Positions 6,441 to 57,067 of a DNA stretch of 64,000 bases are shown here, piece by piece. A program made the translations under genes and the position numbers. Every line of letters begins with the position of its first letter. Position 1 is the first letter of the stretch. The notes under the pieces are model-generated. The model saw only the letters and a list, made by a program, of their open reading frames with translations, had not been told where the DNA came from and did not search any database. Source of the DNA: an uncultured Calditrichaceae bacterium (GTDB lineage: Bacteria; Calditrichota; Calditrichia; RBG-13-44-9); assembly GCA_964495805.1 (NCBI GenBank), contig CAZBWV010000051.1:8973-72972 (forward strand). Direction: 5' to 3'.

Positions 6441-6454
6441 TCACGAGGATGACA

Positions 6455-25003: not shown

Positions 25004-25026
25004 GTTCGCGAAATATTTTTCCCTGA

Positions 25027-27618: not shown

Positions 27619-27704
27619 TCCGTACTCCTGAATCGATGCCCGTGGTTTTTTCCACGAATATACGTTCTTTTGTTTTACGGAGGGAACCTTTTTCTTGACC
27701 GGGC

Positions 27705-28892: not shown

Positions 28893-29009
28893 GCTTCCTC
28901 CTTGTTACCAATTCATGGTTGGTTCAAATTCATGATTTGCTGTGCCTCAAACAATTTCTGTGCTGAGAACTTTTGTGCGAGTATATTTCTCTCAATTGAG
29001 AATTCAAGG

Positions 29010-30443: not shown

Positions 30444-30446
30444 ATT

Positions 30447-32018: not shown

Positions 32019-32199
32019 GAATAGTTCTCCTGAGCTTTCGTCAAACGGTTGGTTTCCTTTTCAACCGCATATTAGGTTGAATGGTGGAACCATTTAAGTG
32101 CTTGTAGTTTCAGGTACAAATTGAAACGAAACAGATGTTTCATATTTGAACACAATTCAATCTTTTCCGTTGGAAGTCCCTGACTCCTGTTTGTCCGGA

Positions 32200-34214: not shown

Positions 34215-34230
34215 TCGTTTGCTCCCATTA

Positions 34231-37053: not shown

Positions 37054-37108
37054 AGGTTGTCTCCTTTACCAATCTATTAACTTCATTTAATTGGGCATTC
37101 GGGTTCGG

Positions 37109-41719: not shown

Positions 41720-42440
41720 AGCTGACCCCTTATTTTAGTTGATGTGAGATTTAATGGTATCGCATTTACTCAAAAAAACAGATTATGCGCATCTCAGGTA
41801 AGCATTCAACAACAGAGGGAACGGGTCGCTACCATGCCTGTGGAGAGGTGGAGGATGGATCGATTCGAGAGTGGATTAAAGTAGTATTTTCACAAGTCAA
41901 AAGTCATTTTCCAGTGTTTGTTCCCATTCACTGAGAGTATAATAAAACCAACCAAAAATGTCAACCCCTATTTGCAACATATTTTTCAAATTTAATCGAT
42001 AATTGAAACAAATATTTTCAACAAAAAACTGTAATGTATTGTTTTCGGGGGAGTTAAAATGTCCTAATTTATTAAATTAAATCGATGTTTATCGTTAACA
42101 TAACTGAAACAACGGAGTTTCTACCTGAAAATATTGTTTCAGAAAAGATAATAGTTGATTTTTTCCGTTCCCATATTTTATATTGAATTGGCATAAAAAA
42201 CGGATGATCTGGTAACTTCTTAAGATGGCAAATCGCTGAAAAACAATCTCTACCGGATAACCTCCTCTCCTCCGAAGATTCCGGGTTTGTGCATTTCGTG
42301 TTTTGGACATTCCTGTTTGAACAGCTTGCAACGGTGTTTGGAGAAGAAGGTGATTGATAATTAGTGCTGTTGTTTCGCTTACCCCGGGAAGTTGATTGCG
42401 GGGAAAAGATGCCCACTTTTAAATTGCAGGAGGCCGCAGG

Positions 42441-43712
42441 GTGCAAATGGAAGTGGTTGTTTTTGTGGTGATGACGCTCTCTTTTATTCTGGCGGCCATG
42501 TGGTTGAAATGGCCCATTGGTGTTTCGCTGATGGCTGCCTCCGTCATTGGTGCACTGGTGGGGGGAGTGGGTTTTCCCCTGCGTCACCTGGTGGAAGGAA
42601 CTTTCGCATATCTCGACCCCATTTTAATTATTGCCACCGCCATGGTGTTCATGGAGGTGCTTCGACGCTCGGGTTCGCTGGAAAATCTGAGTCGGCTTAT
42701 TCTGCTGAAGCTTCATCGCTATCCCCTCTGGCTGATTGTGTCCATCACGCTGTTTATCATGTTTCCCGGAATGATTACCGGTCTTTCCACTGCCACGGTA
42801 CTGACCACGGGTGCCATTGTAGCACCTGCGCTCATTCGGCTGGAAATCCCCCGGCTCAAAGTGGCTGCCATGATTGCCATGAGCGCCATTTACGGGATGA
42901 TTGCTCCGCCCATAAATGTTCCGGCTATGATTATTGGCGGCGGTGTGGACATGCCTTACATCGGTTTCGACCTTCCCTTAATTGTGGCAACATTTCCGCT
43001 GGCTATTGTGGTCAATCTGGCGCTGGGTTACTCCCATGTTCGTCGGGCAAACATGGAACGGGTACTTGCCGCGCTTCGGAAGGAAGACCAACAGGCGGGA
43101 ACGGTGTGGTTGCATTTCCCGCTGGTTCTGGTTATTCTGCTACTGGTGGGCATTCGGGTGTTTCCGGGAATTTTCCCCAATCCGGGAATTCCGCTTATTT
43201 TTCTCATTGGAAGCGGGGTAGGGGTTTTTACCGGAAAGAAATTTCGTTTCTTCTCGGTGGCCACCGATTCGCTTCACCAGGGATTGCCAGTAATCGGGAT
43301 TTTGTTGGGCATCGGAATGTTCATTCAGATTATGACCCTGACCGGTGTGCGCGGTTTGCTGGTGATGGCCAGTCTGAGTTTGCCCTCCCTATGGCGATAC
43401 CTGGGCATTTCCACCATGATGCCACTTTTCGGAGCCATTTCCGCTTACGGGTCGGCTTCGGTTTTAGGAGTGCCGTTTCTGCTGGCGTTTCTGGGTAAGA
43501 ACGAAATCATCGTCGGGTCAGCGCTTTCGCTCATCTCCGGTTTAGGAGATTTAATGCCTCCTACTGCTCTGGCGGGTATTTTTGCCGCTCAGGTGGTGGG
43601 CGAAAAAAATTATTTCAAAGTGCTGAAGTACACCATCCTGCCAGCCGTCCTTACCGCTGTGTGGGGTATTGGAATGATTGTTTTTGCCAATGCGCTGGCC
43701 AGAATCCTGTAA
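42441..43712 (+). CDS. polytopic membrane permease, DctM-like (TRAP large-permease / ion-transporter superfamily); no DctP or DctQ partner in window
   Basis: About 12 TM segments in 423 aa. DctM-like region RRSGSLENLSRLILLKL. AGGAGG Shine-Dalgarno 7 nt before the GTG at 42441; alternative ATG at 42447. Confidence 0.4.
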   Translation: MQMEVVVFVVMTLSFILAAMWLKWPIGVSLMAASVIGALVGGVGFPLRHLVEGTFAYLDPILIIATAMVFMEVLRRSGSLENLSRLILLKLHRYPLWLIVSITLFIMFPGMITGLSTATVLTTGAIVAPALIRLEIPRLKVAAMIAMSAIYGMIAPPINVPAMIIGGGVDMPYIGFDLPLIVATFPLAIVVNLALGYSHVRRANMERVLAALRKEDQQAGTVWLHFPLVLVILLLVGIRVFPGIFPNPGIPLIFLIGSGVGVFTGKKFRFFSVATDSLHQGLPVIGILLGIGMFIQIMTLTGVRGLLVMASLSLPSLWRYLGISTMMPLFGAISAYGSASVLGVPFLLAFLGKNEIIVGSALSLISGLGDLMPPTALAGIFAAQVVGEKNYFKVLKYTILPAVLTAVWGIGMIVFANALARIL

Positions 43713-43743
43713 TCTGACTTTAACAAATAATCCGGGTGCAACC

Positions 43744-43890
43744 ATGTTGACAATGATTTATCAGGGAATTCTTCTTTTTTTTATTGTACTATTTGTGCGG
43801 GCGGTGTTTCGGGAGAAGAAAAAAAGCATGCAACTCACCGCGGCTGTGGCTTGCATTCCGTTTATCCTGCGGCTGCTCATGATAAAGTGA
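43744..43890 (+). CDS. small hydrophobic protein (2 predicted TM helices), uncertain
   Basis: 49-aa ORF (MLTMIYQGILLFFIVLFVRAVFREKKKSMQLTAAVACIPFILRLLMIK) lying between the permease and the AstE/AspA-like gene. No other support. Confidence 0.2.
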   Translation: MLTMIYQGILLFFIVLFVRAVFREKKKSMQLTAAVACIPFILRLLMIK

Positions 43891-43953
43891 AACAATTCGG
43901 CATTCTCCGCCCTTTTATGTGGTAAAAAATGACCCTGTGAAAGATATCCCGGA

Positions 43954-45123
43954 ATGGATGCGCAAAAAATGAATCATAAAAAACGGAAAGATAGGGTGAA
44001 ACCAAAAGTTTTCCATGAGGCAGGAATCAGCCTTCTTTTTCTGCTTGCGGTGGTTGGGGTGATGGTGCTGGTGGCACGGGATTTCCGCAGGATGTGGCAA
44101 CCGGAAATGCTTCATCCATCCCCGGCTCTCACGCGCATTCTGCATCTGCACGATTTCCATGCCCCGCTGGCGGGAACCCGGGGAGACGCGGAAATTTATT
44201 GTTTTGAATCCGGCCAATCGGGTGGCAAAATTCTGGTTCTGGGGGGAACCCATCCTAATGAACCGGCCGGATTTGTGGCTGCGGCGCTGTTAGTGGAAAA
44301 TTTACAGGTACGAACTGGCAGTGTGTATGTAATTCCCCGGGCAAACAGCAGCGCATTCACTCATACCGAACCGCAGGAGGCTTCCCCGGAATATTTTACC
44401 ATTCCCGGGAAGAATGGTCCCCGCACGTTCCGCTTCGGTTCCCGCTTCACCAATCCCATTGACCAGTGGCCCGATCCGGATATATACCTGCACTACCCGT
44501 CCGGTCAGGAACTGGCTGGCAGCGAAACACGCAACCTGAATCGCTCCTATCCCGGTAAACCGGATGGCTCCCTTACCGAGCAAATCGCTTATGCCATTGT
44601 GCAATTTATTAAAGGAGAAAAAATCGACCTGGCTTTCGATTTACATGAAGCATCTCCGGAATATCCGGTGGTGAACGCCATTGTTGCCACCGAGAGCAGT
44701 CAGGATATTGCTACCGAAGCGGTGCTGGAACTGGCTTTCGAAAATCTACACTATTCCCTGGAGCCGTCTCCCTACAATTTTCGCGGATTGAGTCATCGGG
44801 AATGGGAAAATTTCACCGGGGCAAAACCCATCCTGATGGAAACGGCTAATCCCATTCAGGGGCGTTTGCGGGGTCGCACCGATGCCCGCTTGATATTAAC
44901 CGGCTGGGATCGCATGTACCTGAAAGCTGCCCGCCTGGGAATTCTGAGTGTGCCTTACGATTCCACCGGTCTGCCTCTGAAGTTGCGGGTGGGGCGGCAT
45001 CTGGAAGCATTTGCTAAAATTGTGGAAGTTTTCTCCCGTCATTATCCCGACCGGGCTGTACAACTGGACGGAATTCCCTCCTATCAGATGCTGATGGCAA
45101 AGGGACTGCGGGAGTATTTTTAG
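43954..45123 (+). CDS. succinylglutamate desuccinylase/aspartoacylase (AstE/AspA, M14-like) family zinc hydrolase with N-terminal membrane anchor
   Basis: Single N-terminal TM helix. ILVLGGTHPNEPAG matches the AstE/AspA and M14 HxxE zinc motif. Length 389 aa. Confidence 0.6.
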   Translation: MDAQKMNHKKRKDRVKPKVFHEAGISLLFLLAVVGVMVLVARDFRRMWQPEMLHPSPALTRILHLHDFHAPLAGTRGDAEIYCFESGQSGGKILVLGGTHPNEPAGFVAAALLVENLQVRTGSVYVIPRANSSAFTHTEPQEASPEYFTIPGKNGPRTFRFGSRFTNPIDQWPDPDIYLHYPSGQELAGSETRNLNRSYPGKPDGSLTEQIAYAIVQFIKGEKIDLAFDLHEASPEYPVVNAIVATESSQDIATEAVLELAFENLHYSLEPSPYNFRGLSHREWENFTGAKPILMETANPIQGRLRGRTDARLILTGWDRMYLKAARLGILSVPYDSTGLPLKLRVGRHLEAFAKIVEVFSRHYPDRAVQLDGIPSYQMLMAKGLREYF

Positions 45124-45238
45124 CCGGAGCTGCCCGGATTGGGATTGTGTGCAAGGTGTGGAAAGGAATTTTCGTTCCGGCTGAAGTGTGGTTTGGAAAT
45201 CACTATTGACGGATGAATAAAAAAACCGGAGGTTTGGA

Positions 45239-45793
45239 ATGAGACAGCTTATGGTGTCTTTGCTGATGTTGATGGTGCTGAGCGCTATGGCGGCAGAAAA
45301 AACTGCTTCTGAATTTCACGCCAGCGATCCGGTGCTAATTACCAGCGCCGGGCAGAGCTCCGATGTGCTGATGGTGAAACTGTTAGCAGAACGTGCGGGT
45401 ATTGCCTATCAGTTCGATAAAATGGCGCAACCGGACATGCTGAAAGAGGTGAAAACTCTGATTCTGGTAGCCGGTGGCAGCAGCAAAGGGTTGGGCGCTG
45501 CCCGCATCGATAAGGAACAGGAGTTGAATCGGGTGAAACAATTAGTGGCCAGGGCAGAGCAGGATCGTATTCCCATCGTGGCCATTCATGTAGGGGGCAA
45601 AGCACGGCGTGGAAAGTTGTCCGATTATTTTAGCGACTATGTTGCCCGCCATGCCAATCTGCTGATTGTGGTAAAAGAAGGGGATTACGACGGGTTCTTT
45701 TCCCGAATTGCTCAGGAAAAAAAGATCCCCATTCATTTGCCTGATGAATTGCAGGATGTTCAGCAAGAATTGAAACAGGTGTTTCAGAAATAG
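45239..45793 (+). CDS. secreted hypothetical protein
   Basis: Signal peptide (MRQLMVSLLMLMVLSAMAAEK). 184 aa. No recognised motifs. Confidence 0.4.
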   Translation: MRQLMVSLLMLMVLSAMAAEKTASEFHASDPVLITSAGQSSDVLMVKLLAERAGIAYQFDKMAQPDMLKEVKTLILVAGGSSKGLGAARIDKEQELNRVKQLVARAEQDRIPIVAIHVGGKARRGKLSDYFSDYVARHANLLIVVKEGDYDGFFSRIAQEKKIPIHLPDELQDVQQELKQVFQK

Positions 45794-45806
45794 AGTGTGA
45801 GGCAAG

Positions 45807-47282
45807 ATGAAAAGACTGCTCACTGCTCTTGCTCTCCTGATGGGGTTTTCCCTTCTGTCGGCTTCCACCATTGGGGTGGCCACCGGAAGCTGCACGGTGG
45901 ATGGTCGGCCGCTGCTGTTTAAAAATCGGGATCGCACTGACGCCTGGCCGCCGGATGTCATCTTCTATCTGGGACTCGCCGGAGAGTACAGCTTTGTGTA
46001 TCACAACACCTATTCCCACGGACACACCCAGGCTCGAATGGGGATTAACACGGCGGGATTTGGTATTGGCAATACCGATAGCGAAAATTTGCAGGGTGCC
46101 GGGGTAGGGATGAACAATGGCGAGCTGATTATGCACGCGTTGAAGTATTGCGCGACCATTCAGGATTTTCGCAATATGCTGGATAGCACCAACGGTGCGC
46201 GGCGCGTGCATGCCCACATCGGTGTTATCGATTCCACCGGAGCCGGATCTCTGTTCGAAGTGGATGGATTCACATACGTGGAACTTATGGTGGTGGACAG
46301 TGCCGCCACCATGGCCAACACCGCCAAGTTTCATCCCAATGCCGGGCCACCCGCATCCGGCTCCACCTCCCCGCAGCGAGAAGGACGGGTGGCGGAACTG
46401 TTTAGCCTGGCACCCAACGGAGTGATGGATTATCGCTATTTTGTGGAAGAAATCATGCAGGATTTTTCGGAGACTCAGGCAATTGAGAATATGATGCCGG
46501 TGGGGCAGTACCTGACCAATCCGGTAATCTCGCGCTACAAAACGGTGGCCGGAGCAGTGATTCGCGGGTGCAAGCCGGGGGACAATCCGCTGATTGAATC
46601 AACAATGTGGCTGGCGATGGGAGAACCGTCCCTTTCTATTGTGCTACCCTTCTTCCCCAATGTACCGGTGACGTTTGCTTTTGTGCGGCCAACCGCCGGA
46701 GACGGAGGTATGGCCGGTTCCACCGACCGGATGCGCCAATTGGTGTACAGTTACGCCAACGGACGCTACGGCGACCACTGGGCAGATACCTATCGTTTGG
46801 TGGATATCCGTTCCTACACGTTTCCCCTGGAAGATAGCCTCTTCCACAATTATGAGCAGCAACTCCCGGTCTGGCGTAGCCTCCCTGCTCAGCAAGCAGC
46901 GGATTCCATGTTGTTCTGGAGTTATCGGATTCAGATGTTTGCCAAACAGGAGTACGACCATATTTACCAGCTGCTCGGTGTACAGAAGCCCCGGACGGAA
47001 ATATCGCAAAGCACGGTGTTGTTGCATCTGTATCCCAACCCGTTTAACGGAAGTTTACGACTGCGTTACCGAATTACCCGGGGGGATTCCCCGCAATTTC
47101 GCATCTACGACGTGTCGGGACGATTGCGCTGGGAGAAACAGCTTGCACCTCAATCACCAGGCTGGCATGAGCTCGAACTGCCTTTTTCCGCCATTTTACC
47201 CCGTGCTGGAGCCGGGATTTATTTTGTGGAATATCGGTGCAGCGGTGCGATGCGGGTGAAAAAAGTGGTGTATGTCCCGTAA
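45807..47282 (+). CDS. T9SS-secreted Ntn-hydrolase-like protein (C69/C59-like, Cys nucleophile after signal peptide) with CTD-like tail
   Basis: Signal peptide, then GVATGSCTVDGRPLLFKNRD, which resembles the C69 dipeptidase / choloylglycine-hydrolase N-terminal nucleophile region. C-terminus YPNPFNGSLRLRYRI...GIYFVEYRCSGAMRVKKVVYVP. Confidence 0.45.
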   Translation: MKRLLTALALLMGFSLLSASTIGVATGSCTVDGRPLLFKNRDRTDAWPPDVIFYLGLAGEYSFVYHNTYSHGHTQARMGINTAGFGIGNTDSENLQGAGVGMNNGELIMHALKYCATIQDFRNMLDSTNGARRVHAHIGVIDSTGAGSLFEVDGFTYVELMVVDSAATMANTAKFHPNAGPPASGSTSPQREGRVAELFSLAPNGVMDYRYFVEEIMQDFSETQAIENMMPVGQYLTNPVISRYKTVAGAVIRGCKPGDNPLIESTMWLAMGEPSLSIVLPFFPNVPVTFAFVRPTAGDGGMAGSTDRMRQLVYSYANGRYGDHWADTYRLVDIRSYTFPLEDSLFHNYEQQLPVWRSLPAQQAADSMLFWSYRIQMFAKQEYDHIYQLLGVQKPRTEISQSTVLLHLYPNPFNGSLRLRYRITRGDSPQFRIYDVSGRLRWEKQLAPQSPGWHELELPFSAILPRAGAGIYFVEYRCSGAMRVKKVVYVP

Positions 47283-47318
47283 TAAAAAAAGAATGGAGTA
47301 AGCAGGAAAGGGCTGAGT

Positions 47319-48875
47319 GTGAAGAGGAAAAAGGGAATGCTACCCGGAAGTTGGAGAATCTGTTGGGTTGTGTGGCTGGTGATTGCATTAGTGTGGAGTT
47401 CACCGGCGCAGGATGATGGCGAAGCGTGTACCATCGGAGTGGCTTCGGGAATGGCAACCAGCGATGGCCGTCCGTTGCTCTGGAAAACCCGCGACAACAG
47501 CGACAAACCCAACAACGAAGTGGTGTTTAACACCTCCTACCGATATGGTTTTGTTGAAGTGGTCAATGCCGGTGGGTCGTATGCCTGGATGGGGGTTAAC
47601 GAAAAAGGTTTTGCCATTGTGAACTCTTACGCAGGGGATTTGCCGGCAGCCTCTTCCGGAATGACCAACGGGTTGTTAATGAAGGTTGCTCTGGGTACCT
47701 GTGCCTCTGTGGCTGATTTTGAGCATTTGCTGGACAGCACCAACGTCACCGGTCGGAAAACCCGGGCCAATTTCGGCGTCATCGATTCCACTGGCGCAGC
47801 GGCTATTTTCGAGACGGCAGGATATGTGTACTGGAAATTCGATGCCACGGACAGCACCCAGGCACCGGAAGGCTATATCGTACGGACGAATTTTGCCCTG
47901 AATGGCGGAGGAACCAGTGGTATCGAGCGGTACATCCGTTCCAACAATTTGATTCACACTTTCTGGAGCGGCGACTCTTTGAACTACCGATCGGTGCTGC
48001 GCTACCAGATGCGCGATTTTTCCGACAGCAGTTCCAATCCCATTCCCATTCCCTACCATGGTTACTGGGCGGGCGGTTACCCCTACGGTTACATCGATGC
48101 CAGTTACAGTATTTGCCGCTGGTCGTCCGTCTCTGCTGCAGTGATTCAGGGTGTGTTGCCGGGCGAGTCACCTCGATTATCCACCATGTACACCCATCTG
48201 GGGCAACCGGCGATGGGCATATTCGTTCCCTACTGGCCGGTGGGTACCACACCACCGGTGGCGAACGGAAGCCCCACTGCTCCTCTGTGCGATGTCGCCA
48301 ATCTGATTCGCTCCCATGTATTCGATTTTTATTATGACAAACACTATTTGAATAGTTTTAAGTTGCGAGACGATGATGGAACAGGCATCTGGAGCCAGAC
48401 TTTTCCCGCAGAAGATTCAATTCTGGCAGTTACCGACTCTGTGTTAGCCCTGTGGCGGTCTCAAATGCCCTCCTCCACGGAGATGCGCATCGTGGAATAT
48501 CAGCTGGCGAATTATGCTTACGGAAAGATTCAGCAGGTGCTGGGGTGGATTTCTACCATCACTTCTCCCGTTTCCGAAACCGCCCCCGGCGATTTTCGGA
48601 TTGTGGGCAGTTACCCCAATCCGTTTAATGCGGAAACGGTGGTGGAGTTTACCGTACCGGTTCGCCAGCGAGTCGAGCTGGCTGTGTTTAACATTTTAGG
48701 GCAGTGTGTTGCCACTTTGTTGTCCGGTTCGGTGAGTCCCGGCACGCATCGGGTGCGGTGGAAAGCAGGTGGTTTCCCCTCCGGGGTGTATCTGGTCCGG
48801 TTGAAGGTGCCGGGAACCGCGAATACCATGCCATCTCGCTCCATGCACATAACCAGGGTGGTGCTGTTGAAATAG
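47319..48875 (+). CDS. T9SS-secreted Ntn-hydrolase-like protein, paralog of 45807-47282, type-A CTD
   Basis: GVASGMATSDGRPLLWKTRD aligns with the paralog motif; note that the Cys is replaced by Met or Thr here. C-terminus SYPNPFNAETVVEF...GVYLVRLKVPG...RVVLLK. Confidence 0.45.
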   Translation: MKRKKGMLPGSWRICWVVWLVIALVWSSPAQDDGEACTIGVASGMATSDGRPLLWKTRDNSDKPNNEVVFNTSYRYGFVEVVNAGGSYAWMGVNEKGFAIVNSYAGDLPAASSGMTNGLLMKVALGTCASVADFEHLLDSTNVTGRKTRANFGVIDSTGAAAIFETAGYVYWKFDATDSTQAPEGYIVRTNFALNGGGTSGIERYIRSNNLIHTFWSGDSLNYRSVLRYQMRDFSDSSSNPIPIPYHGYWAGGYPYGYIDASYSICRWSSVSAAVIQGVLPGESPRLSTMYTHLGQPAMGIFVPYWPVGTTPPVANGSPTAPLCDVANLIRSHVFDFYYDKHYLNSFKLRDDDGTGIWSQTFPAEDSILAVTDSVLALWRSQMPSSTEMRIVEYQLANYAYGKIQQVLGWISTITSPVSETAPGDFRIVGSYPNPFNAETVVEFTVPVRQRVELAVFNILGQCVATLLSGSVSPGTHRVRWKAGGFPSGVYLVRLKVPGTANTMPSRSMHITRVVLLK

Positions 48876-48992
48876 ATTTGGCCAATTGCCGGAGCCGAAA
48901 ATGGTGCTGTCGGGCAATCTGATGTCCGTTTTCTTTTTTCCGGGAAGATAATTGTCAGTCGGGAAGTTCCAGGTTCCGGTGGCTGCGATGAT

Positions 48993-50696
48993 TTGCGAGA
49001 AATAGCGAAGGGTGGAAAAACCATGCGAAACATCTCTCGAATTCGACCGGTGCTGGTGCTTGTCGCCGCACTTTTTTGTGGGTTTGTTCTGCTGACCGGT
49101 GCGGGAAACGCTCAGGATGTGGTGGCTTCGCACGGAATGGTCGCCAGTGCGCATCCGCTGGCTTCCCGGGCCGGACTGGAAATATTGCAGCAGGGCGGCA
49201 ATGCTGTGGATGCGGCCGTTGCCACCGCATTCGCTCTGGGAGTGGTGGAACCCAACGCCTCGGGGATAGGCGGCGGCGGTTTTATGGTGATTCGAACAGC
49301 AGACGGGCGAACGGTCACCATTGACTATCGTGAAGTGGCACCGCAAAAAGCAACAGCGGATTTGTACTACCGAACCAGCGAGAGTTTCGACAGCTTGACT
49401 CACCACGGTCCCATGTCTATCGGTGTACCCGGAACAGTTGCCGGGTTGACGCTGGCGCTGGAGAAGTATGGTACCCTGCCCCTGAGTCGGGTTCTGCAAC
49501 CGGCCATCCGCTATGCCGAAGAGGGATTTCCGGTCAGTGCCAAACTTTCTGACATCATCATGCAGAAATACGAAATTATTCAGATGTTTCCCGCAACGGC
49601 GGCCATCTATCTGGACAACGGTTTACCCCTCATGGCCGGAAATGTGTTGAAAAATCCCGACCTGGCAGCAACCTACCGACTTCTCTCGGATAGTGGCGCA
49701 ACTGCTTTTTACCGCGGGCATCTGGCGCGGGAAATAGTCCGGCAGGTTCAGGCGCTGGGTGGCATCCTTACCATGGCGGATTTGCAACAGTATCGAGCAT
49801 TGGAGAAGACACCCGTTCAGGGAAGTTACCGGGGATATCACATCGTTTCTTCGGCTCCTCCCACCGGAGGGGGCACCCATCTGGTTGAACTGCTGAATAT
49901 TCTGGAGCAAACCAATGTGAACAGTCTGGGACACAACAGTGCGGATTATCTTCATCTGCTGGCTGAGGCCATGAAGATGGTTCTGGCCGATAAAGCGTAC
50001 AACATGGGCGATCCCGCATTTTACCGGGTGCCGGTGGAAAAACTTACCAGCAAAGCCTATGCGGAATCGCTCTTTACCTGCATTGATATGCAACATGCCC
50101 GTTTCGATTATCAGCCTCCGCACTGGATTGCCCCGGAGTCCCGCAATACCACCCATCTTTCCGTGGTGGATTCCCTCGGGAATGTGGTGGCGCTTACCCA
50201 GAGTATTAATTTGTGGTTTGGTTCCGGGGTGGTGGTGGAGGGTACGGGAATTTTGCTCAACAACCATTTGCGGGATTTCGACAAACGTCCCGGACATCCC
50301 AATTCCATCCAGCCGGGGAAGCGTCCCGTCAGCAGCATCGCACCAACCATTGTGCTAAAGGGAGATGCCCCATTCCTGACCATTGGTACGCCAGGCGGAA
50401 CACGCATTATCGGCGCACTGGCGCAAATTCTGGTAAATATCATCGATTTTGGTATGGGCATCGACCAGGCCATCGAAGCACCCAGAATTCACGCTTACAA
50501 AAAAACGCTCCATGCAGAAGGCCGAATTCCGGAAACCGTTCTTGAAACGTTGAAACAGCGCGGACACCGGGTTAAAGTACACGACAACTACGATGCTTAT
50601 TTTGGTGGGGCTCAGGGCATTTTGATTGATTCTGAAACGGGTGAACTGCGAGGTGGGGCGGATTCTCGCCGGGATGGGGTGGCCATGGGATATTAA
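48993..50696 (+). CDS. ggt: gamma-glutamyltranspeptidase
   Basis: Signal peptide. Threonine nucleophile block TTHLSVVDSLGNVVALTQSINLWFGSGVVVEGTGILLNN, then PTIVLKGD...TIGTPGGTRII. Colinear with E. coli GGT. Confidence 0.9.
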   Translation: MREIAKGGKTMRNISRIRPVLVLVAALFCGFVLLTGAGNAQDVVASHGMVASAHPLASRAGLEILQQGGNAVDAAVATAFALGVVEPNASGIGGGGFMVIRTADGRTVTIDYREVAPQKATADLYYRTSESFDSLTHHGPMSIGVPGTVAGLTLALEKYGTLPLSRVLQPAIRYAEEGFPVSAKLSDIIMQKYEIIQMFPATAAIYLDNGLPLMAGNVLKNPDLAATYRLLSDSGATAFYRGHLAREIVRQVQALGGILTMADLQQYRALEKTPVQGSYRGYHIVSSAPPTGGGTHLVELLNILEQTNVNSLGHNSADYLHLLAEAMKMVLADKAYNMGDPAFYRVPVEKLTSKAYAESLFTCIDMQHARFDYQPPHWIAPESRNTTHLSVVDSLGNVVALTQSINLWFGSGVVVEGTGILLNNHLRDFDKRPGHPNSIQPGKRPVSSIAPTIVLKGDAPFLTIGTPGGTRIIGALAQILVNIIDFGMGIDQAIEAPRIHAYKKTLHAEGRIPETVLETLKQRGHRVKVHDNYDAYFGGAQGILIDSETGELRGGADSRRDGVAMGY

Positions 50697-50738
50697 CCGG
50701 CAGGGATGTGCACAAACGTAAAGAAAAAGGAGATATCA

Positions 50739-51782
50739 ATGAATATCGGCCAGGGGAGTCGTCTGTGGCGCCGCGGAGGAATTTTTTTGCTCTTTTTATT
50801 GCTGGTTCAGCTTTCCTGTACCGCTCAGTTAAGTGATGAGCAAAAGTTCGAGCGCTTTTTTCACAAAAAGTCGCCCACCATTTTAGTTACCGATTCCGGG
50901 TTGGGCGGGGTATCCATTGCTGCGGATGTGGTGGAGCGCTTGAAGCCATCCGGCCTGTTTCAATCCGCCAGGGTGGTATTTTTCAACGCTCAACCGCACC
51001 TAAAAAGCGGTTACAACCGCATGAAAACCACCGAACAAAAAGTGCACGTCTTCGAGAATGCTCTGCAAGCTATGGAGAAGACGTTCCATCCGGATATGAT
51101 TCTGATTGGATGCAACACACTTTCCGTACTCTATCCGTACACCCGGTTTGCCAGCCAAACGCAAATTCCGGTGGTGGGTATTGTGCGCACCGGAGTAAAG
51201 GTGATTGAGCAGGCGTACCGGAAGTATCCCGACGCCCAGATTTTTATTTTTGCTACAAAGACCACCGTAAAGCAGGGAAAGCACAAGCAGTTGCTGGTGC
51301 AGGATGGAATTCCGACAGACCACATCATTGCGCAGGCCTGCCCCGGACTGGCCGGTCGCATTGAGCGCGGCCCGGATAGTCCGGAAACACGTGCCCGGGT
51401 GCAAAAATATGTGGATCGAGCGCTGGAAAGCTTTGCCGATACCACCCGACCAATTCTGGTTAGCTTGAATTGCACCCATTACGGATATGTGCGTCACCTG
51501 TTTGAGGAAGCGTTTCAGAAACGCGGTTACCAGGTGGCGGACGTTCTGGACCCCAATCCGTATCTGGGAGATTTTCTGTTTCGGACGGATTACCTGCACC
51601 GCTATCCAGAAACAGATGTGAGTGTGGAAGTGTATTCCCAGCCGGTGCTTCCCCGGCAACGTCTGGAGAATATTGCTCGCCTGATCGAAAAGCGCTCTCC
51701 CCAAACAGCGGAAGCGTTGCGGCAGTGTCAGTTTACTCCCGATCTGTTCGAATGGAAGTCCATTGCCGGGGATACGCAGTAG
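50739..51782 (+). CDS. Asp/Glu racemase superfamily protein (glutamate racemase-like) with predicted signal peptide
   Basis: AAGGAG Shine-Dalgarno 6 nt before the ATG at 50739. Signal peptide (MNIGQGSRLWRRGGIFLLFLLLVQLSCTAQ). ILVTDSGLGGVSIA and the two catalytic-Cys blocks MILIGCNTLS and ILVSLNCTHYGYV match the MurI-type DSGxGG / xCNT / GCTHYP motifs. Confidence 0.5.
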   Translation: MNIGQGSRLWRRGGIFLLFLLLVQLSCTAQLSDEQKFERFFHKKSPTILVTDSGLGGVSIAADVVERLKPSGLFQSARVVFFNAQPHLKSGYNRMKTTEQKVHVFENALQAMEKTFHPDMILIGCNTLSVLYPYTRFASQTQIPVVGIVRTGVKVIEQAYRKYPDAQIFIFATKTTVKQGKHKQLLVQDGIPTDHIIAQACPGLAGRIERGPDSPETRARVQKYVDRALESFADTTRPILVSLNCTHYGYVRHLFEEAFQKRGYQVADVLDPNPYLGDFLFRTDYLHRYPETDVSVEVYSQPVLPRQRLENIARLIEKRSPQTAEALRQCQFTPDLFEWKSIAGDTQ

Positions 51783-51789
51783 ATGAGAA

Positions 51790-52902
51790 TCAGGAGGGAG
51801 TCTTTTTTAAGAAGAACATCATGAGCACGAGTAACATGAGGGAAAAAATAGCCAGCGGACGGGTAGCCCGGGTGCGGAAGTAAGGGAGATGAAGTCCCGG
51901 TGGAATAAATCGACCGGGAGCAATGGGAAGCCCGTATCGGGAGGCCAATCCGCGGATGTCCAACAGGTGAATAACCGGAATTCCACGCCGTAGAAAGTAA
52001 AAAATCAGCCCGGAGTTAGGTTGGAGGGAGGAAGCGTGTCGTCGAACCACTCCCCCGGGGAGAAGCGCTGCCGCCGTTCCTTCCCCCAACGCAGTTTGAT
52101 TTCCCCCGATATTGATGAAACAGCGAATCCGATGCTGCCGGGTGAACAGAGCGATTTTCCGTTGAATGGCTTCGGTCAAATCTTTCGGAACGGTCAGAGG
52201 GTAACCGTTCCGTTGAACGGCCTGGCGAACCAGTTCCATTCCGGTGTGGTAAAAAGACGAGCCGTTGTCCTGGTTACCTCCCGGGGTAACCAGCTCACTG
52301 CGGTGGTGGATGATGCCCCGGCGAAAGAGAATCTGTTCCATATCCGGATAAGTAAACCCGGGGAGATTGGCGCCATAACTGCTGGCACCCACCGAAGCGG
52401 AAATCACCGGCTGGAGTCCCAGCGTTTCGCAGGCTACGATTGCGGCAATGTTGAGTGCCGGGAAGGAACCGGAACACTGGATGCCCACTTCATCGCCGGG
52501 CTGCAAAGGGAGTTCGTAAAGCCAGCGTACCAGAAGGGCGGCAAAATCCGGCTGCGCACTGGTTTGCTTGGCCGCTAAATTTCCCAGTGTGGTGGTGATG
52601 GGAGTGAATTCCGTGCCGATGAACCCGGTGCGCGCCGGGTCCAGCCCGGAAAGGATGGGGATATCCTGAAGTGTTCGTTCCTCACGAATTACCTGAATTG
52701 CCCGGTGCATGGTAGCAGAAGCCTCCACCATGGCACGGTAGGCGGGATGAAACTCCCGAGTGGGGAAATAACCGTACATGGTGAGCAGAAAAATAGCCAA
52801 CAGGGTGGCGATTACATAGCGTATGGTGTGGTGTCTGAGATTCATTTTTGAAATACCACTTTTCGTTGAATAAACGGAGAAATTGTCCCGGGGCGGATGC
52901 AA
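51790..52902 (-). CDS. membrane-anchored poly-gamma-glutamate system accessory protein (non-CapA type), putative
   Basis: Third gene directly downstream of pgsB and pgsC on the same strand. N-terminal TM anchor. It lacks the metallophosphatase motifs of CapA/PgsA. Confidence 0.35.
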   Translation of the reverse strand: MHPPRDNFSVYSTKSGISKMNLRHHTIRYVIATLLAIFLLTMYGYFPTREFHPAYRAMVEASATMHRAIQVIREERTLQDIPILSGLDPARTGFIGTEFTPITTTLGNLAAKQTSAQPDFAALLVRWLYELPLQPGDEVGIQCSGSFPALNIAAIVACETLGLQPVISASVGASSYGANLPGFTYPDMEQILFRRGIIHHRSELVTPGGNQDNGSSFYHTGMELVRQAVQRNGYPLTVPKDLTEAIQRKIALFTRQHRIRCFINIGGNQTALGEGTAAALLPGGVVRRHASSLQPNSGLIFYFLRRGIPVIHLLDIRGLASRYGLPIAPGRFIPPGLHLPYFRTRATRPLAIFSLMLLVLMMFFLKKTPS

Positions 52903-52920
52903 ATATTAACTATGTGCAAT

Positions 52921-53352
52921 TCAAAAATAAATTAACTGAAGAAGGAAAAAAACAACCGCCGAGACCACCGCCATTCCGGCAAATGTTTTCAGCACCCCCT
53001 GACGCAAAAATTCGTTGGCCATCAGACCAGGGATAATGTAACCGATAGCCCGCAGGTCCATTCCGGTTTCCGGGAGAAACCACAGAAGGTAATCCGCTCC
53101 TAATCGCAGAACAAATCCGAACAAAATGGCTAACAGAAAGCGGCGGCGACCAAAAATTATCAACCGCTGTTGCAGCAGGTAAACCAATCCTGCAGAGATG
53201 AGCGCTAATAGAATAGTAACACCAATCCGCCCGGGTTGCTGAATAAACAGAGCCAGATATCCGGGTACCACAATTCCTCCGGCGGTTAAGCCGGTCAGCT
53301 CAAAAAATAAAAATCCGATGAAAATACCCAGTCCAAAAGCGGAAAGAATCAT
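52921..53352 (-). CDS. pgsC: poly-gamma-glutamate biosynthesis protein PgsC/CapC
   Basis: 143-aa membrane protein. GGIVVPGYLALFIQQP and IIPGLMANEFLRQG align closely with B. subtilis PgsC (GLVVPGYLGLVF... and IVPGLIANTIQKQG). Confidence 0.8.
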   Translation of the reverse strand: MILSAFGLGIFIGFLFFELTGLTAGGIVVPGYLALFIQQPGRIGVTILLALISAGLVYLLQQRLIIFGRRRFLLAILFGFVLRLGADYLLWFLPETGMDLRAIGYIIPGLMANEFLRQGVLKTFAGMAVVSAVVFFLLQLIYF

Positions 53353-53500
53353 TGATGAGTCCTTTGCTTAAGTTTAAAAATTTCAAACGGTTCCTTTCCG
53401 AATCTCCTGCCTTTCTCTGTTGCTATCTCAATATACAGGAATCCACAAGGGGATTTGCTCACTTTTCTGTTCGCTGGAAAAAAGTCTCTCCGTTTTTTCT

Positions 53501-54667
53501 TTACTCTGTGTGATCGGTGCCGGGTAAAAAATGTTCGGCATCGCGATGGTTGGCCAGGGCAAACAGGGTGGTGGGTCGGTTAAATCCCTGACGAAGCCGT
53601 CGGCCGGTTTCCCGGAAGTTCAGTACCTCTACTTTACCGGAGAATGAGTTGAGCAATCGTTTTCCCAGATGTCGTCCGCTGCCGGTGAGCCACACCTGCG
53701 ATTCGGGAAACATGCGTTGTACCAGACGGATAAAGTCCTGGCTTCGCAGTGGGCGATCCTGACGCAAGTTCAGTAGCACGACCTGTTCGTTGCTGATAGG
53801 TAGCAGACTTTGCAGATGGTTGATCAGCTTCCCGGCGGTGGGAGCGTCGTTTACCGAGAGCAGGTTAATCAGATGAAATTGCTGGTCGGGGAAATTCCGG
53901 ACAATGTTGCGGTCAATTCCTTCCCACACTTCCCGAAATGCCCGGGTGGTTTCCACCGACGAAACACCCAGATCCCCAAGCAGTGCAGAGAGCAAACCCC
54001 ACTGGCTTTCGATGAGCTCTCCGGGAAAATGAACCGGTCGATAGGCAGGAGGAACTGTCGGACAGAGGCGAAACCCGGTCGTTTCTGCCGAAATATGGGG
54101 TAGAAAAACTTCCTGCTCTGTTTCCGGAAGGTATATGTGAGCCTGCAGACGAAGGCAACGTGATAGTGTGGCGGCAATTTCCGCCCGGGTTTGTCCCATC
54201 ACCTCCCGGTGGTCAACCTCCGCACCGGTCAGTAGAATGTGAGTGGGGCGAAAGATATGCCTGGCCAGAATCTGCTGATTCTCCGCCTGGAGCGCATTGC
54301 ATTCCAGTATTACTGCACGAGGATGTTCCTGAGCCACGCGAAATAAAAACCAGATATTCTCCCGAATACCTGCCGGTGCGCGACGAACCACCATCCGGGT
54401 TCTACCATCGGACTGGTAGATCAAAGGTGCGTCTCCGGTGGTTTTAGCTACGGCGGAAATTCCAGAGCGGTTTAGTGCAAGATGAATGATTTTCACGGCG
54501 GTGGACTTGCCACGAGTGCCATTCACTAAAATGCGCAATGGAACGCTCCGCAGAATCCGTTGCAGCATCCATTGCTCCATACCAAAGGCAATTAGCAAAA
54601 GACCGAGAGAAAAGAGGTAAATAATGGCGGTCACCTTTCTTTTTTGCCGATGAAAAATACTTCCCAT
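53501..54667 (-). CDS. pgsB: poly-gamma-glutamate synthase PgsB/CapB (Mur-ligase-like amide ligase)
   Basis: N-terminal TM helix, then the P-loop block ILVNGTRGKSTAVKII (matches VNINGIRGKSTVTRL in PgsB). Length 388 aa. Confidence 0.8.
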   Translation of the reverse strand: MGSIFHRQKRKVTAIIYLFSLGLLLIAFGMEQWMLQRILRSVPLRILVNGTRGKSTAVKIIHLALNRSGISAVAKTTGDAPLIYQSDGRTRMVVRRAPAGIRENIWFLFRVAQEHPRAVILECNALQAENQQILARHIFRPTHILLTGAEVDHREVMGQTRAEIAATLSRCLRLQAHIYLPETEQEVFLPHISAETTGFRLCPTVPPAYRPVHFPGELIESQWGLLSALLGDLGVSSVETTRAFREVWEGIDRNIVRNFPDQQFHLINLLSVNDAPTAGKLINHLQSLLPISNEQVVLLNLRQDRPLRSQDFIRLVQRMFPESQVWLTGSGRHLGKRLLNSFSGKVEVLNFRETGRRLRQGFNRPTTLFALANHRDAEHFLPGTDHTE

Positions 54668-54784
54668 TCGGCGAACAAAGCAACCGGAAGATGGATTGTA
54701 CGGAAAGAAATTTTATTCTCCCGTTTGAAATGCTGGCGAAAAAGTTTAATTTTTGCCCCTGGTGATCATAGAAAGGGTGCTGGT

Positions 54785-55669
54785 ATGGCGCTGGTAATTG
54801 TGGCGGTTGTTCTGGTAATGGCAGTGCTTTTATTGAATCGCCTGTTGGGTAAGCTGTACACCAATCCGGTTCGGAAAAATCGCACTACACCTGCGGACAT
54901 TGGTCTGGAATTCCGGGAGACACGGATTCCCACCGAAAATGACCGTCAGCTTTATGGCTGGTGGATTCCCGCCAGAGAAGCCTCTTCCGTGACGCTGGTA
55001 CTGGTGCACGGTTGGGGCCAGAATTCCGAGAAAATGCTTCCCTTTGTCAAAGAACTGCATCCACGGGGATACAATCTGGTTACCTTCGACGGACGGAGCC
55101 ATGGGCAGAGCGACCACGATGGCTATTCCACCATGCTTAAATTTGCCCGGGATATTTCCGCAACCATTGATTTTGTGCAGCAGACTTACCCGGAGCGCAG
55201 CAAGACGGTGGGTGTCATTGGTTTTTCCATCGGTGGAGCAGCAACCATCTATGCTGCGGTGCATGATACCCGTATTGCCCTGGCCGTGAGCGTGGGAGCA
55301 TTTGCCCATCCCCTGGACGTTATGCGCATGGAGCTGGAAAAGAAACATGTTCCTTACATCCCTTTTGTGTGGTTGCTGTTTCGCTATGTGGAATTGCGAG
55401 TGGGATTTCGGTTCGACAGTATTGCTCCGGTTCGCAATATACCCCGGCTGCGCACACCGTTGATGCTCATTCACGGAGAGAAAGATCCGGTGGTGCCAAT
55501 TACTCAGGCACGCAAAATACTGGCTGCTGCTCCGAACGGGCTGGTAGAATCCTGGTTTGTGCCGGGCAAAGGCCATTTCGACGCCATTACGCACCCGGAA
55601 TTCTGGCCGCGTGTTCTGGAATTTCTGCAGCGAAAACTAAAACAGAATGCCTCCACTGCCGAAAAATGA
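54785..55669 (+). CDS. alpha/beta-hydrolase fold protein with N-terminal membrane anchor
   Basis: Start moved to the ATG at 54785; the annotated 54644 start overlaps pgsB. LVHGWGQNSEKMLPF and the GFSIGG nucleophile elbow are present. His and Asp residues in the C-terminal third. Confidence 0.7.
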   Translation: MALVIVAVVLVMAVLLLNRLLGKLYTNPVRKNRTTPADIGLEFRETRIPTENDRQLYGWWIPAREASSVTLVLVHGWGQNSEKMLPFVKELHPRGYNLVTFDGRSHGQSDHDGYSTMLKFARDISATIDFVQQTYPERSKTVGVIGFSIGGAATIYAAVHDTRIALAVSVGAFAHPLDVMRMELEKKHVPYIPFVWLLFRYVELRVGFRFDSIAPVRNIPRLRTPLMLIHGEKDPVVPITQARKILAAAPNGLVESWFVPGKGHFDAITHPEFWPRVLEFLQRKLKQNASTAEK

Positions 55670-55713
55670 ACTGAACCGCAAGCGATTTCTTCTATTCGGA
55701 ATAAATTCCTGCC

Positions 55714-55743
55714 GGAAATGGAAAAATTTTTCCTGTAATTTCC
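55714..55743. promoter_or_regulatory. nested inverted repeat GGAAAT-GGAAAAATTTTTCC-N4-ATTTCC upstream of the RND efflux operon, candidate operator
   Basis: A 14-bp perfect palindrome (55720-55733) is flanked by a second pair of GGAAAT/ATTTCC arms. It lies about 170 bp upstream of the MFP gene in an AT-rich leader. Confidence 0.3.
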
Positions 55744-55909
55744 AAAAAATGTTTTTATGAACTGAAATAATTCTTTAACTTTAGTGAAATGTGTGAATTA
55801 TTATCTTGAGGGTAGGAGTTTTGTTGCCATAAACCCGCTACTTTTAACTCCTTGGTAGAATTTTCAAATTGATAAACATGATGAACACTGTTTTATTGGA
55901 GGTCTCGGA

Positions 55910-57067
55910 ATGAGAAATTTGTTCTCCGTGGTATTCTTTTTAGCCGGATGGATACTCCTGATTTCCTGTGGAGGAGAATCCGGTGAGGTGCTGGCACCAC
56001 CGGAAGTGGTGGTGGTGACCACCCAGGCGGAAAAAGTACCCATTTATCAGGAATTTGTGGGGCAGATTTACGGTCAGAAGGACATCCGGATTCCCGCCCG
56101 GGTAGAGGGGTTTCTGGAAGGCATTTATTTTAAGCAGGGTTCGGTGGTTAAAAAGGGGCAGTTGCTCTATACAATCGATCCGCAACCGTTTGAAGCAAAA
56201 GTGGCTGCACAGATGAGTCGGCTGGCTGAGGCAAAAACCATGCTGGCCAAAGCCCAGAGCGATTTAAACCGAATTCGCCCTCTGGCAAAAATCAATGCCG
56301 TGAGTCAGAGCGAACTGGATGCGGCGGTGGCACAATTCGAAGCCGCCCAGGCGGGAGTGAAAGCGGCGGAAGCCAATCTCCGTGCGGCACGAATTCAATT
56401 AAGCTACACCCGCATCAAAGCGCCCATTACCGGCATCATTGGTAAAACCAAAGCGAAAGTGGGCGATTTCGTGGGACGTTCGCCCAATCCTGTGGTGCTA
56501 AACACCATCTCTAAAATCGATACCATTCTGGTGGATTTCTTTCTGAATGAATCCCAGTATCTGAAACTGGCTCGTGCCTATCTGAAAAAGACCAAGCAGG
56601 ACCTGGAAAAAGTGCAGGAAGCGAAAACTCAGAATCTGGAGCTGATTCTGGCTGATGGTTCGGTACATCCCTACAAAGGTGGAATTATGTTTGTGGACCG
56701 CAACATCGATCCCTCCACCGGCGCCATCCTGGTGGAAGCTTACTTCCCCAATCCGCGTAAGTTACTTCGCCCCGGCCAGTATGCCAAAGTACGAGCGGAA
56801 GTGGATGTAGTGGAAAACGGCATTCTTATTCCCCAGCGTGCTGTGAGTGAATTCCAGGGCATTTACCGGGTGTTTGTGGTAAATGATTCCAATGTGGTTC
56901 AGCTCCGGGAGGTGAAAACCGGCCCCACTGTAAAGGATAAATGGCTGGTTCTGGAAGGCTTGAAACCCGGTGAACAGGTGGTGGTGGAAGGCATTCAGAT
57001 GCTGAAACCGGGAATGACCGTGAAACCGGTTGCAAAAACGGAAAGTACCGAACAACCGCAACCGTAG
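55910..57067 (+). CDS. RND efflux periplasmic adaptor (membrane fusion protein, AcrA/MexA-like lipoprotein)
   Basis: Lipobox LLISCGG. Coiled-coil hairpin region with Ala- and Gln-rich repeats. Beta-barrel and MP domains. Gene order is MFP, then RND, then OMF. Confidence 0.85.
   Translation: MRNLFSVVFFLAGWILLISCGGESGEVLAPPEVVVVTTQAEKVPIYQEFVGQIYGQKDIRIPARVEGFLEGIYFKQGSVVKKGQLLYTIDPQPFEAKVAAQMSRLAEAKTMLAKAQSDLNRIRPLAKINAVSQSELDAAVAQFEAAQAGVKAAEANLRAARIQLSYTRIKAPITGIIGKTKAKVGDFVGRSPNPVVLNTISKIDTILVDFFLNESQYLKLARAYLKKTKQDLEKVQEAKTQNLELILADGSVHPYKGGIMFVDRNIDPSTGAILVEAYFPNPRKLLRPGQYAKVRAEVDVVENGILIPQRAVSEFQGIYRVFVVNDSNVVQLREVKTGPTVKDKWLVLEGLKPGEQVVVEGIQMLKPGMTVKPVAKTESTEQPQP

Follow-up and report, generated by a model that had tools for sequence, protein, structure and literature searches.

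Knowledge of poly-gamma-glutamate (PGA) comes almost entirely from Bacillus, in which the synthase genes are arranged as pgsBCAE in Bacillus subtilis, with pgdS and ggt, and as capBCADE in Bacillus anthracis. The PGA operon of B. subtilis includes the gene of a hydrolase, pgdS. A different arrangement was reportedly described by Candela et al. in 2009 for PGA secretion by Fusobacterium nucleatum, in work cited by reviews: a three-gene cluster of a capB/pgsB-like gene, a capC/pgsC-like gene and a third conserved gene. The last of these is now modelled as TIGR04332 ('pgsW'). Here we describe a locus carrying homologues of these three genes in a stretch of 64,000 nucleotides from an uncultured Calditrichaceae bacterium (assembly GCA_964495805.1, contig CAZBWV010000051.1, positions 8,973 to 72,972 of the forward strand); this whole stretch is referred to as the window, and positions are counted from its first letter. 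The locus is probably, although far from certainly, a PGA system of the two-membrane type, accompanied by an extracytoplasmic module that tailors, degrades and salvages the polymer. This reading starts from what was observed, namely the identities of the genes, the predicted locations of their products, conserved catalytic residues and conserved linkage, and from these we infer the biochemical roles.

The original prediction for this DNA placed pgsB and pgsC at 43954-54667, beside genes for a gamma-glutamyltransferase (GGT), a racemase, an M14-like hydrolase and two N-terminal nucleophile (Ntn) hydrolases exported by the type IX secretion system (T9SS). All of the genes named there were found at their positions, with profile support. 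The cluster is larger than was proposed, since a permease, a peptide of 48 amino acids (aa) and the significance of the DUF6305 protein had been overlooked; its start moves to 42441, giving 11 genes at 42441-54667:

42441-43712, plus strand: DctM-like permease with 12 helices, 423 aa (PF06808), which opens the plus-strand operon
43744-43890, plus strand: unannotated two-helix peptide of 48 aa, MLTMIYQGILLFFIVLFVRAVFREKKKSMQLTAAVACIPFILRLLMIK, read from the sequence
43954-45123, plus strand: membrane-anchored zinc hydrolase of the AstE/AspA type, 389 aa (PF24827)
45239-45793, plus strand: DUF6305 protein, 184 aa, with a signal peptide and a small alpha/beta domain (PF19823)
45807-47282, plus strand: T9SS-exported Ntn-hydrolase paralogue, 'Ser-type', 491 aa (TIGR04183)
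47319-48875, plus strand: T9SS-exported Ntn-hydrolase of the C45/AAT type, 'Cys-type', 518 aa (PF03417, NF040521, TIGR04183)
48993-50696, plus strand: GGT, 567 aa, with a signal or anchor sequence and without a lid loop (TIGR00066)
50706-51782, plus strand: MurI-like Asp/Glu racemase homologue, 358 aa, with a lipoprotein-type signal peptide (PF01177, TIGR00067)
51790-52902, minus strand: TIGR04332 'poly-gamma-glutamate system protein' (NCBI symbol pgsW)
52921-53352, minus strand: PgsC, 143 aa, polytopic membrane subunit (TIGR04011, PF14102)
53501-54667, minus strand: divergent PgsB amide ligase, 388 aa, with an N-terminal membrane anchor (TIGR04012)

The pgsB-pgsC-TIGR04332 genes on the minus strand and the accessory genes on the plus strand thus converge. 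Gene calls on the source contig of the window omit the open reading frame (ORF) at 43744-43890. Translation of the TIGR04332 protein likely starts at the ATG at 52845, which gives 351 aa. Locations of the window proteins were predicted from hydropathy and motifs.

The F. nucleatum cluster has the same three synthase genes in the same order, also without PgsA. It differs from the window locus in three respects: the PgsB of the window is a member of a fast-evolving subfamily (148 versus 481 bits), the accessory genes, which in F. nucleatum precede the synthase genes within one operon, converge on them from the opposite strand in the window, and the window adds the racemase lipoprotein and the T9SS-exported Ntn hydrolases. 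With the Bacillus systems the locus shares homologues of PgsB and PgsC, their predicted topology, and the presence of a GGT-family enzyme without a lid loop and of another hydrolase, encoded with or near the synthase. Unlike in Bacillus, profile scans of about 45 large window ORFs found no PgsA/CapA (PGA_cap) domain, and the third synthase subunit has an unrelated fold with no match among solved structures. The hydrolases of the window are a zinc enzyme of the AstE/AspA type and C45-type Ntn hydrolases, not the NlpC/P60 enzyme PgdS, and the organism has an outer membrane and a T9SS.

Association of these genes was followed in other genomes. A TIGR04332-seeded scan of species-representative genomes yielded 63 loci from many phyla, among them loci of F. 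nucleatum, Treponema vincentii, Cetobacterium, Aminicenantes, Atribacterota, WOR-3 and Bacillota; 35 of the 63 were at least 15 kb long. The genes pgsB, pgsC and TIGR04332 occur together in 33 of the 35 long loci, with the same order in nearly all; the trio of permease, AstE-like and DUF6305 genes is also present in 17, and the trio plus GGT in 14. Among the loci from a DUF6305-seeded scan of metagenomes, 18 reached 15 kb or more; of these, 16 contain the trio and GGT, and 10 contain pgsB, pgsC and TIGR04332. The permease gene adjoins the AstE-like and DUF6305 genes in 34/39 DUF6305-seeded loci of at least 8 kb, and in 57 of 62 loci, from all phyla, these two flank an ORF for a peptide of the 48-aa type, which lies between the permease gene and the AstE-like gene. 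The GGT, DUF6305, permease, peptide and AstE-like genes form a module, of which the GGT gene is the most constant companion; about half of the long loci have this module next to pgsB-pgsC-pgsW. A collinear operon with the order GGT-DUF6305-permease-AstE-pgsB-pgsC-TIGR04332 was found in Fusobacterium, Treponema, Cetobacterium, a metagenome-assembled genome (MAG) of Bacillota and gut metagenomes. On a Cetobacterium somerae replicon (RefSeq) the genes read ggt, DUF6305, TRAP large permease subunit, a 47-aa hypothetical protein, succinylglutamate desuccinylase, pgsB, pgsC and pgsW.

That two gene sets converging from opposite strands, which in the window cannot form one transcript, are merely chance neighbours is hardly credible. 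DUF6305 is a small family (510 proteins at E<=1e-5 in a word-indexed search of 5.8 billion), and the genes recur together, often as a single operon, in dozens of loci that span at least six phyla, which places the grouping far beyond chance and refutes this explanation. The same conserved synteny across phyla ties the GGT and the AstE-like hydrolase to the pgs genes, as had been proposed, and the idea of a locus that combines synthesis with gamma-glutamyl processing is strengthened by the comparative linkage. The combination had been regarded as unusual; it is instead the common state of TIGR04332-type loci across phyla, F. nucleatum included.

The racemase homologue and the T9SS proteins are limited to MAGs labelled Calditrichia, Melioribacteraceae, KSB1 and Bacteroidota and to unlabelled metagenome loci of the same architecture. 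In these relatives, which share the convergent arrangement of the window, the layout is permease, AstE-like hydrolase, DUF6305, Ntn hydrolase, second GGT, Ntn hydrolase, GGT and racemase, towards which TIGR04332, pgsC and pgsB converge. Compared with its close relatives the window has lost the second GGT and has no shorter AstE/AspA paralogue beside TIGR04332, which several of them carry. This short paralogue (277-291 aa) lies between the TIGR04332 gene and that of the racemase lipoprotein (11084-11917 in locus L002, 10892-11767 in L005). Upstream of pgsB, close relatives encode a protein of 509 aa that faintly matches Asp/Glu racemases (6319-7848 in L002 and L003); the window has no counterpart. 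The eight-gene operon of Cetobacterium is headed, immediately before ggt, by a gene pair for a histidine kinase and a response regulator (L149, 487-2389), and F. nucleatum has a histidine kinase at the same place (L025, 1755-3143). These genes may regulate the system. No such pair adjoins the window cluster.

Synthase subunits were identified by profile searches. The window PgsB matched TIGR04012 with 148.2 bits (E 2.6e-43), under the curated cutoff of 222.7 bits, and the next family was folC (E 0.007); F. nucleatum PgsB scores 481 bits. PgsC (TIGR04011, 113.3 bits, cutoff 96.45; PF14102, 112 bits) and the TIGR04332 protein (344 bits, cutoff 100; 343 bits for its F. nucleatum counterpart) both exceeded their cutoffs. 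The good confidence with which PgsB and PgsC had originally been named is thus borne out for PgsC; PgsB stays under its cutoff, yet has kept its catalytic residues and its place in the gene order.

The PgsB sequence was compared in an alignment of 15 sequences, comprising the window copy, six clade relatives, seven further PgsB-like homologues (most of them named PgsB by their sources) and F. nucleatum PgsB. All 21 invariant columns are kept in the window copy, including the P-loop GTRGKS (GTRGKST in the window protein), the Mg-binding E122, D152-H153 and the C-terminal motif N300/R302/D304/R305/R308. The Calditrichia/KSB1-like PgsB clade is fast-evolving, with a mutual identity of 31-42%, and its members that carry an NCBI name are called 'hypothetical protein', while two others are PgsB/CapB according to JGI. 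The low score could also mean that the pgs genes are decaying, or that they make something other than free PGA, PgsB having lost or changed its function. The identity of the window PgsB to its nearest relatives, at most 39% where GGT and PgsC reach 59-69% to the same genomes, points the same way as the score. We consider this explanation very improbable, because the ORF is intact and retains the membrane anchor, the invariant columns with the P-loop and the DH motif are complete, the order pgsB-pgsC-TIGR04332 is conserved, and the whole clade is equally divergent, so that the window copy is no outlier. The sequence thus suggests a divergent member of the family, not a clean equivalog, and we treat it as functional.

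The ligase domain of PgsB is predicted to be cytoplasmic, PgsC is polytopic, and the TIGR04332 protein has transmembrane helices at both ends with a predicted periplasmic alpha/beta domain between them. This agrees with the Bacillus complex, in which experimental mapping, reported in the literature, placed PgsB in the cytoplasm and the third subunit, PgsA, in the periplasm. The AlphaFold2 model of the TIGR04332 protein has a pLDDT of 93.3. The family comprises 873 clusters at 50% identity (E<=1e-30), and the closest named relatives of the window protein come from MAGs labelled Calditrichia, Caldithrix, Melioribacteraceae, KSB1 and Bacteroidota. Some members are longer, about 550-690 aa (P0320, P0361, P0379, P0405, P0437 and P0398); one has a tandem duplication of the domain, and the others add a hydrophobic segment and a beta-rich C-terminal domain of about 300 aa without a Pfam match. 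No Pfam domains were found when eight longer family members were scanned for fusion partners. Look-alike motifs had suggested homology between the TIGR04332 and DUF6305 domains, which was rejected after profile-profile comparison (10.7% probability).

Enzymes of the GGT family are divided by the presence of a lid loop; according to a review, Gram-negative GGTs normally possess it, and its absence opens the active site to polymeric PGA. The window GGT (MEROPS family T03; TIGR00066, 540 bits, equivalog cutoff 358) is predicted to be periplasmic on the basis of its signal peptide, and its small subunit begins at the catalytic Thr386, which aligned with residue 1 of solved small chains. The lid loop is absent: the protein aligns without gaps to the GGTs of B. 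subtilis and Bacillus licheniformis across this region, and the small chain of Escherichia coli GGT is eight residues longer over the same span. The loop is likewise missing in all of the approximately 92 GGTs of related loci, in which the region measures 24-28 residues throughout. In this respect the enzyme is of the type of the PGA-hydrolysing Bacillus GGTs, which agrees with its proposed role as a PGA depolymerase. Two GGT paralogue classes occur in many related loci (L002, L007, L009, L013, L065, L072, L073, L090-L092, L096, L139 and L147), one with the motif DDF...PNSIEPGKRPxSS and the other with N.FS...N...P.K.PRST, both lid-loop negative. Only the first class is present in the window.

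A GGT-family enzyme can also serve to anchor the polymer. If the window enzyme acted like CapD of B. anthracis, it would attach PGA covalently to peptidoglycan or another envelope acceptor, while the other hydrolases would release or trim the capsule. The constancy of GGT in the module fits such a role, and CapD is itself a GGT-family enzyme of a PGA operon, also without a lid loop (review). The window GGT is, however, far nearer to canonical GGT (431 bits against full-length E. coli GGT) than to the large and small chains of CapD (174 and 76 bits), and it passes the GGT equivalog cutoff. Assignment to the CapD type was rejected on the same scores. The PGA of F. nucleatum, moreover, is reported to be secreted. 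Anchoring appears improbable to us.

Classification of the zinc hydrolase rests on PF24827 (37 bits, cutoff 25) and on matches to solved structures, which are DoeB and AstE/AspA proteins, with the motifs GGTHPNE and FDLHE aligned. The zinc ligands H100, E103 and H231 are each conserved in at least 95% of 83 homologues, as are R164, R193, N194, N196, R197 and E296. The conserved arginine and asparagine residues we take to be those with which aspartoacylase holds the free carboxylate of the released amino acid. With AstE, aspartoacylase and DoeB (M14-related enzymes) the window protein shares the Pfam catalytic domain, the zinc ligands and the Asn-Arg carboxylate-binding pair. None of these characterised equivalogs was reached, the best NCBIfam model being DoeB (32.6 bits, cutoff 402.7). 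The window protein also differs in having an insertion of about 57 residues between two motif regions, compared with about 12 in a solved homologue, and in its location: a strongly basic stretch precedes an N-terminal anchor, and the catalytic domain is predicted to face the periplasm. To our knowledge, the known members of this family are cytoplasmic. An N-terminal hydrophobic anchor is present in 73 of the 83 homologues. The substrate of AstE, N-succinyl-glutamate, has almost the shape of the C-terminus of gamma-Glu-Glu, and because of this resemblance we propose that the window protein may act as a C-terminal gamma-glutamyl carboxypeptidase or dipeptidase. A relationship to the phage PGA hydrolase PghP had been suggested originally. 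The likeness is general only, both being zinc hydrolases related to carboxypeptidase A; the identification was not upheld, as the protein has no match to the PghP Pfam family (E<=0.01) or in PHROG and is of the AstE/AspA type.

The three remaining members of the module resemble a TRAP (tripartite ATP-independent periplasmic) transporter of the DctP-DctQ-DctM type in that a DctM-family permease has as its neighbours a membrane protein of small size and a protein secreted into the periplasm. The permease aligned over its full length with PF06808 (DctM, 35.6 bits, cutoff 23.8), with no match in NCBIfam or among solved structures; its Cetobacterium orthologue is named 'TRAP transporter large permease subunit' in RefSeq. 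The differences are considerable: the small subunit has 48 aa and two helices, unlike the four-helix DctQ, the periplasmic protein is a DUF6305 domain of 160 aa and not DctP or TAXI, and transporter function is inferred. Neither DctQ nor DctP/TAXI genes were detected among the window ORFs scanned, which offer analogues by position only; the 48-aa peptide itself lay outside those scans. Most copies of the peptide end in ..IP.(I/L)LR.L.IK, and the Cetobacterium copy is annotated as a hypothetical protein of 47 aa. Further copies lie at about 6990-7140 in L025 and at 6132-6275 in L149. Possible identities of the peptide are a small subunit of the transporter or a peptide of the PgsE/CapE kind; it is conserved beside the permease, not beside the pgs genes.

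The DUF6305 protein (PF19823, 184.5 bits) is predicted to be periplasmic and carries the invariant motifs SAGQSxD, GGSxKGxGAA and HxGGxxRRGxxSD. It was modelled by AlphaFold2 with a pLDDT of 94.8, and searches of Pfam and NCBIfam linked it to no family of the DctP or TAXI type.

Proteins specific to this lineage are predicted to act outside the cytoplasm as well. Both Ntn hydrolases have a signal peptide and a T9SS sorting domain (TIGR04183, 30.9 bits in the Ser-type and 31.5 bits in the Cys-type paralogue, cutoff 23), and the cell surface is their predicted location. The Cys-type protein matched PF03417 (AAT, 23.8 bits, cutoff 23.2) and, under the cutoff of 85, the C45 proenzyme model NF040521 (50 bits). 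The paralogues are 29% identical (E 2e-56), and Ser20 of one aligned with the candidate nucleophile Cys37 of the other, right after the leader. Cys-type homologues conserve the motif (E/D)E-CTIGVA..DGRP; in Ser-type homologues the signal peptide leads directly into STIG.

The racemase homologue scored 38 bits with PF01177 (cutoff 31) and 71.4 bits with TIGR00067, under the equivalog cutoff of 146.65, and all 13 of its matches to solved structures are MurI glutamate racemases. It has the motifs DSGLGG, CNT and CTHY, and both catalytic cysteine motifs (CNT and CTHY) align to MurI of Aquifex; CNT is found in 20/20 and CTHY in 17/20 homologues. With MurI it thus shares the DSGxGG, CNT and CTHY motifs and both catalytic cysteines, and it differs in its score below the equivalog cutoff (71 against 147 bits), a C-terminal extension of about 80 residues and a lipoprotein signal peptide, which ends in ..LVQLSC. 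An N-terminal hydrophobic signal occurs in all 20 homologues, in most of which a lipobox-type cysteine follows (e.g. LLLLAC, FSVGC or LLQSC). The protein is therefore predicted to be exported as a lipoprotein and not to remain in the cytoplasm. As such it could not supply D-glutamate to the cytoplasmic domain of PgsB, and the role of D-glutamate supplier once suggested for it is abandoned here. No paper on an exported MurI-type racemase was found in a literature search.

Taken in order, the system may work as follows. Anchored in the inner membrane, PgsB would join glutamates by gamma-amide bonds with its cytoplasmic ATP-dependent ligase domain, as its family and topology suggest. PgsC and the TIGR04332 protein would complete the synthase, the latter in place of PgsA/CapA, and both would pass the chain outward. 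In the periplasm, the GGT without a lid loop would attack the chain end with the free amino group, and the AstE-like hydrolase, whose relatives cleave N-succinyl-glutamate, would take off the C-terminal glutamate or cleave gamma-Glu-Glu. In this lineage the two T9SS-exported Ntn hydrolases would act at the cell surface, and the MurI-like lipoprotein would interconvert free D- and L-glutamate outside the cytoplasm. In the most speculative step, the DUF6305 protein, the DctM-like permease and the 48-aa peptide would form a TRAP-like three-part importer of glutamate or gamma-glutamyl dipeptides. Since known PGA operons pair synthase with hydrolase genes (pgdS, capD), such a combined locus is to be expected and need not be futile.

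Several observations weigh against a system that makes and processes its own PGA. PgsB lies below its NCBIfam cutoff (148 versus 222.7 bits), and an outer-membrane export component for the polymer is not evident. No Foldseek match to the TIGR04332 model was found among solved structures (best TM-score 0.19), which leaves no mechanistic hint, and the best solved fold match of DUF6305 has a TM-score of only about 0.5 (ThiM kinase) and is uninformative; at half the size of known TRAP binding proteins, DUF6305 is also small for its proposed part. That the racemase and the AstE-like domain are exported is a prediction read from hydropathy and motifs. Linkage is incomplete, too: 14 of the 35 long TIGR04332-seeded loci have no trio gene and 18 lack the complete trio, while in 8 of the 18 long DUF6305-seeded loci the module has no pgs genes within 10 kb, so that a place next to the other is not strictly required for either part. 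Finally, GGTs of oral bacteria are known from the literature to degrade glutathione as well, and the substrate of the window GGT could therefore be small gamma-glutamyl peptides.

The loci in which the module stands apart from pgs genes are what would be expected if it served supply, scavenging gamma-glutamyl compounds from outside (glutathione, gamma-glutamyl peptides or the PGA of others) and importing glutamate for PgsB, upstream of the synthase. Its position upstream of pgsB in the collinear operons, the peptide-degrading genes in which the window neighbourhood is rich, and the glutathione use reported for F. nucleatum in the literature are all in keeping with this. It is set against by the GGTs linked to the module, all of which lack the lid loop and are thus of the type tied to polymer access, not to Gram-negative glutathione use. 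Hydrolase genes in PGA operons, furthermore, act on the producer's own polymer, as pgdS does in B. subtilis. A review states the same for capD of B. anthracis. We regard supply as the main task of the module as unlikely, while giving it more weight than the other alternatives; the two readings, supply on the one hand and tailoring or recycling on the other, are compatible.

Beyond the tailoring and salvage reading of this one locus, a broader proposal can be put forward tentatively, as one that we rate somewhat short of an even chance. Two-membrane PGA systems would be a conserved unit of about eight genes, encoding GGT, DUF6305, the DctM-like permease, the 48-aa peptide, the AstE-like hydrolase, PgsB, PgsC and PgsW. 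In this unit a new TRAP-like transporter would be made up of DUF6305, the permease and the peptide, the AstE-like protein would represent a new class of extracytoplasmic gamma-glutamyl carboxypeptidase, and PgsW would be a synthase subunit of a fold unseen among solved structures. Calditrichia-, Ignavibacteria- and KSB1-like lineages would possess, in addition, a cofactor-independent periplasmic glutamate racemase lipoprotein.

The permease gene is preceded by an AT-rich non-coding segment of about 720 bp (41720-42440), which is likely the regulatory region of the plus-strand operon; it gave no Rfam match, and counts of promoter consensus sequences within it were uninformative. An Rfam scan of 41000-56500 revealed no credible RNA element, and a promoter and terminator scan returned the same counts as shuffled sequence. 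Between the two Ntn-hydrolase genes (47283-47318) the coordinates of the ENA source contig (L001) and of the window are shifted by one base, which implies that assemblies of one and the same organism differ by 1 bp in this intergenic space.

Elsewhere, the window carries PorV-like genes and many proteins with T9SS tails. Together with the labels of the MAGs that hold the closest named relatives of the TIGR04332 protein, these genes place the uncultured host in the Fibrobacteres-Chlorobi-Bacteroidetes (FCB) group. A glycan utilisation region at 780-22244 (plus strand), probably for mannan, contains genes for a LacI regulator, an ABC sugar binding protein, two permeases, a GH130 mannooligosaccharide phosphorylase, a 1055-aa T9SS protein with a Laminin_G_3 domain and a GH2 enzyme. 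Two paralogous three-gene modules, at 3735-10776 (plus strand) and 33195-39904 (minus strand), each encode a TonB-dependent receptor with CarboxypepD_reg, a protein of about 1000 aa without a Pfam domain and an outer-membrane protein of the PorV-like/UPF0164 kind. The two large proteins share 31% identity across some 610 residues, and the receptors 49% over their first 235 or so residues and 26% over the rest. Genes for peptide and amino acid breakdown occupy 22468-33069 (minus strand) and encode a T9SS-tailed protein, a PLP-dependent (PALP) enzyme, two M14 carboxypeptidases (863 and 523 aa), an isoaspartyl dipeptidase (TIGR01975, 498 bits), an NhaC/ArcD-type antiporter and an RpiR regulator. 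They fit a protein-degrading lifestyle and may be related to glutamate supply.

The three-gene core of the system is already known, and the extended module was not found described in the literature searched, which yielded no paper on TIGR04332, DUF6305, pgsW in this sense or the module itself, and no relevant one on PGA clusters of Gram-negative bacteria. A 2026 review of the virulence traits of F. nucleatum leaves polyglutamate unmentioned.

In bacteria with two membranes, the locus raises the question of how PGA is built, exported, trimmed and reused. The comparative result provides a list of candidate genes in culturable and partly genetically tractable organisms, Fusobacterium, Treponema and Cetobacterium, and gives a functional context to the uncharacterised DUF6305 and TIGR04332/pgsW families and to an overlooked peptide of 48 aa. 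It also supplies candidate enzymes, namely the membrane-anchored AstE-type hydrolase, the two T9SS-exported Ntn hydrolases and the exported MurI-type racemase, which may be of interest for PGA materials and for D-amino-acid metabolism.

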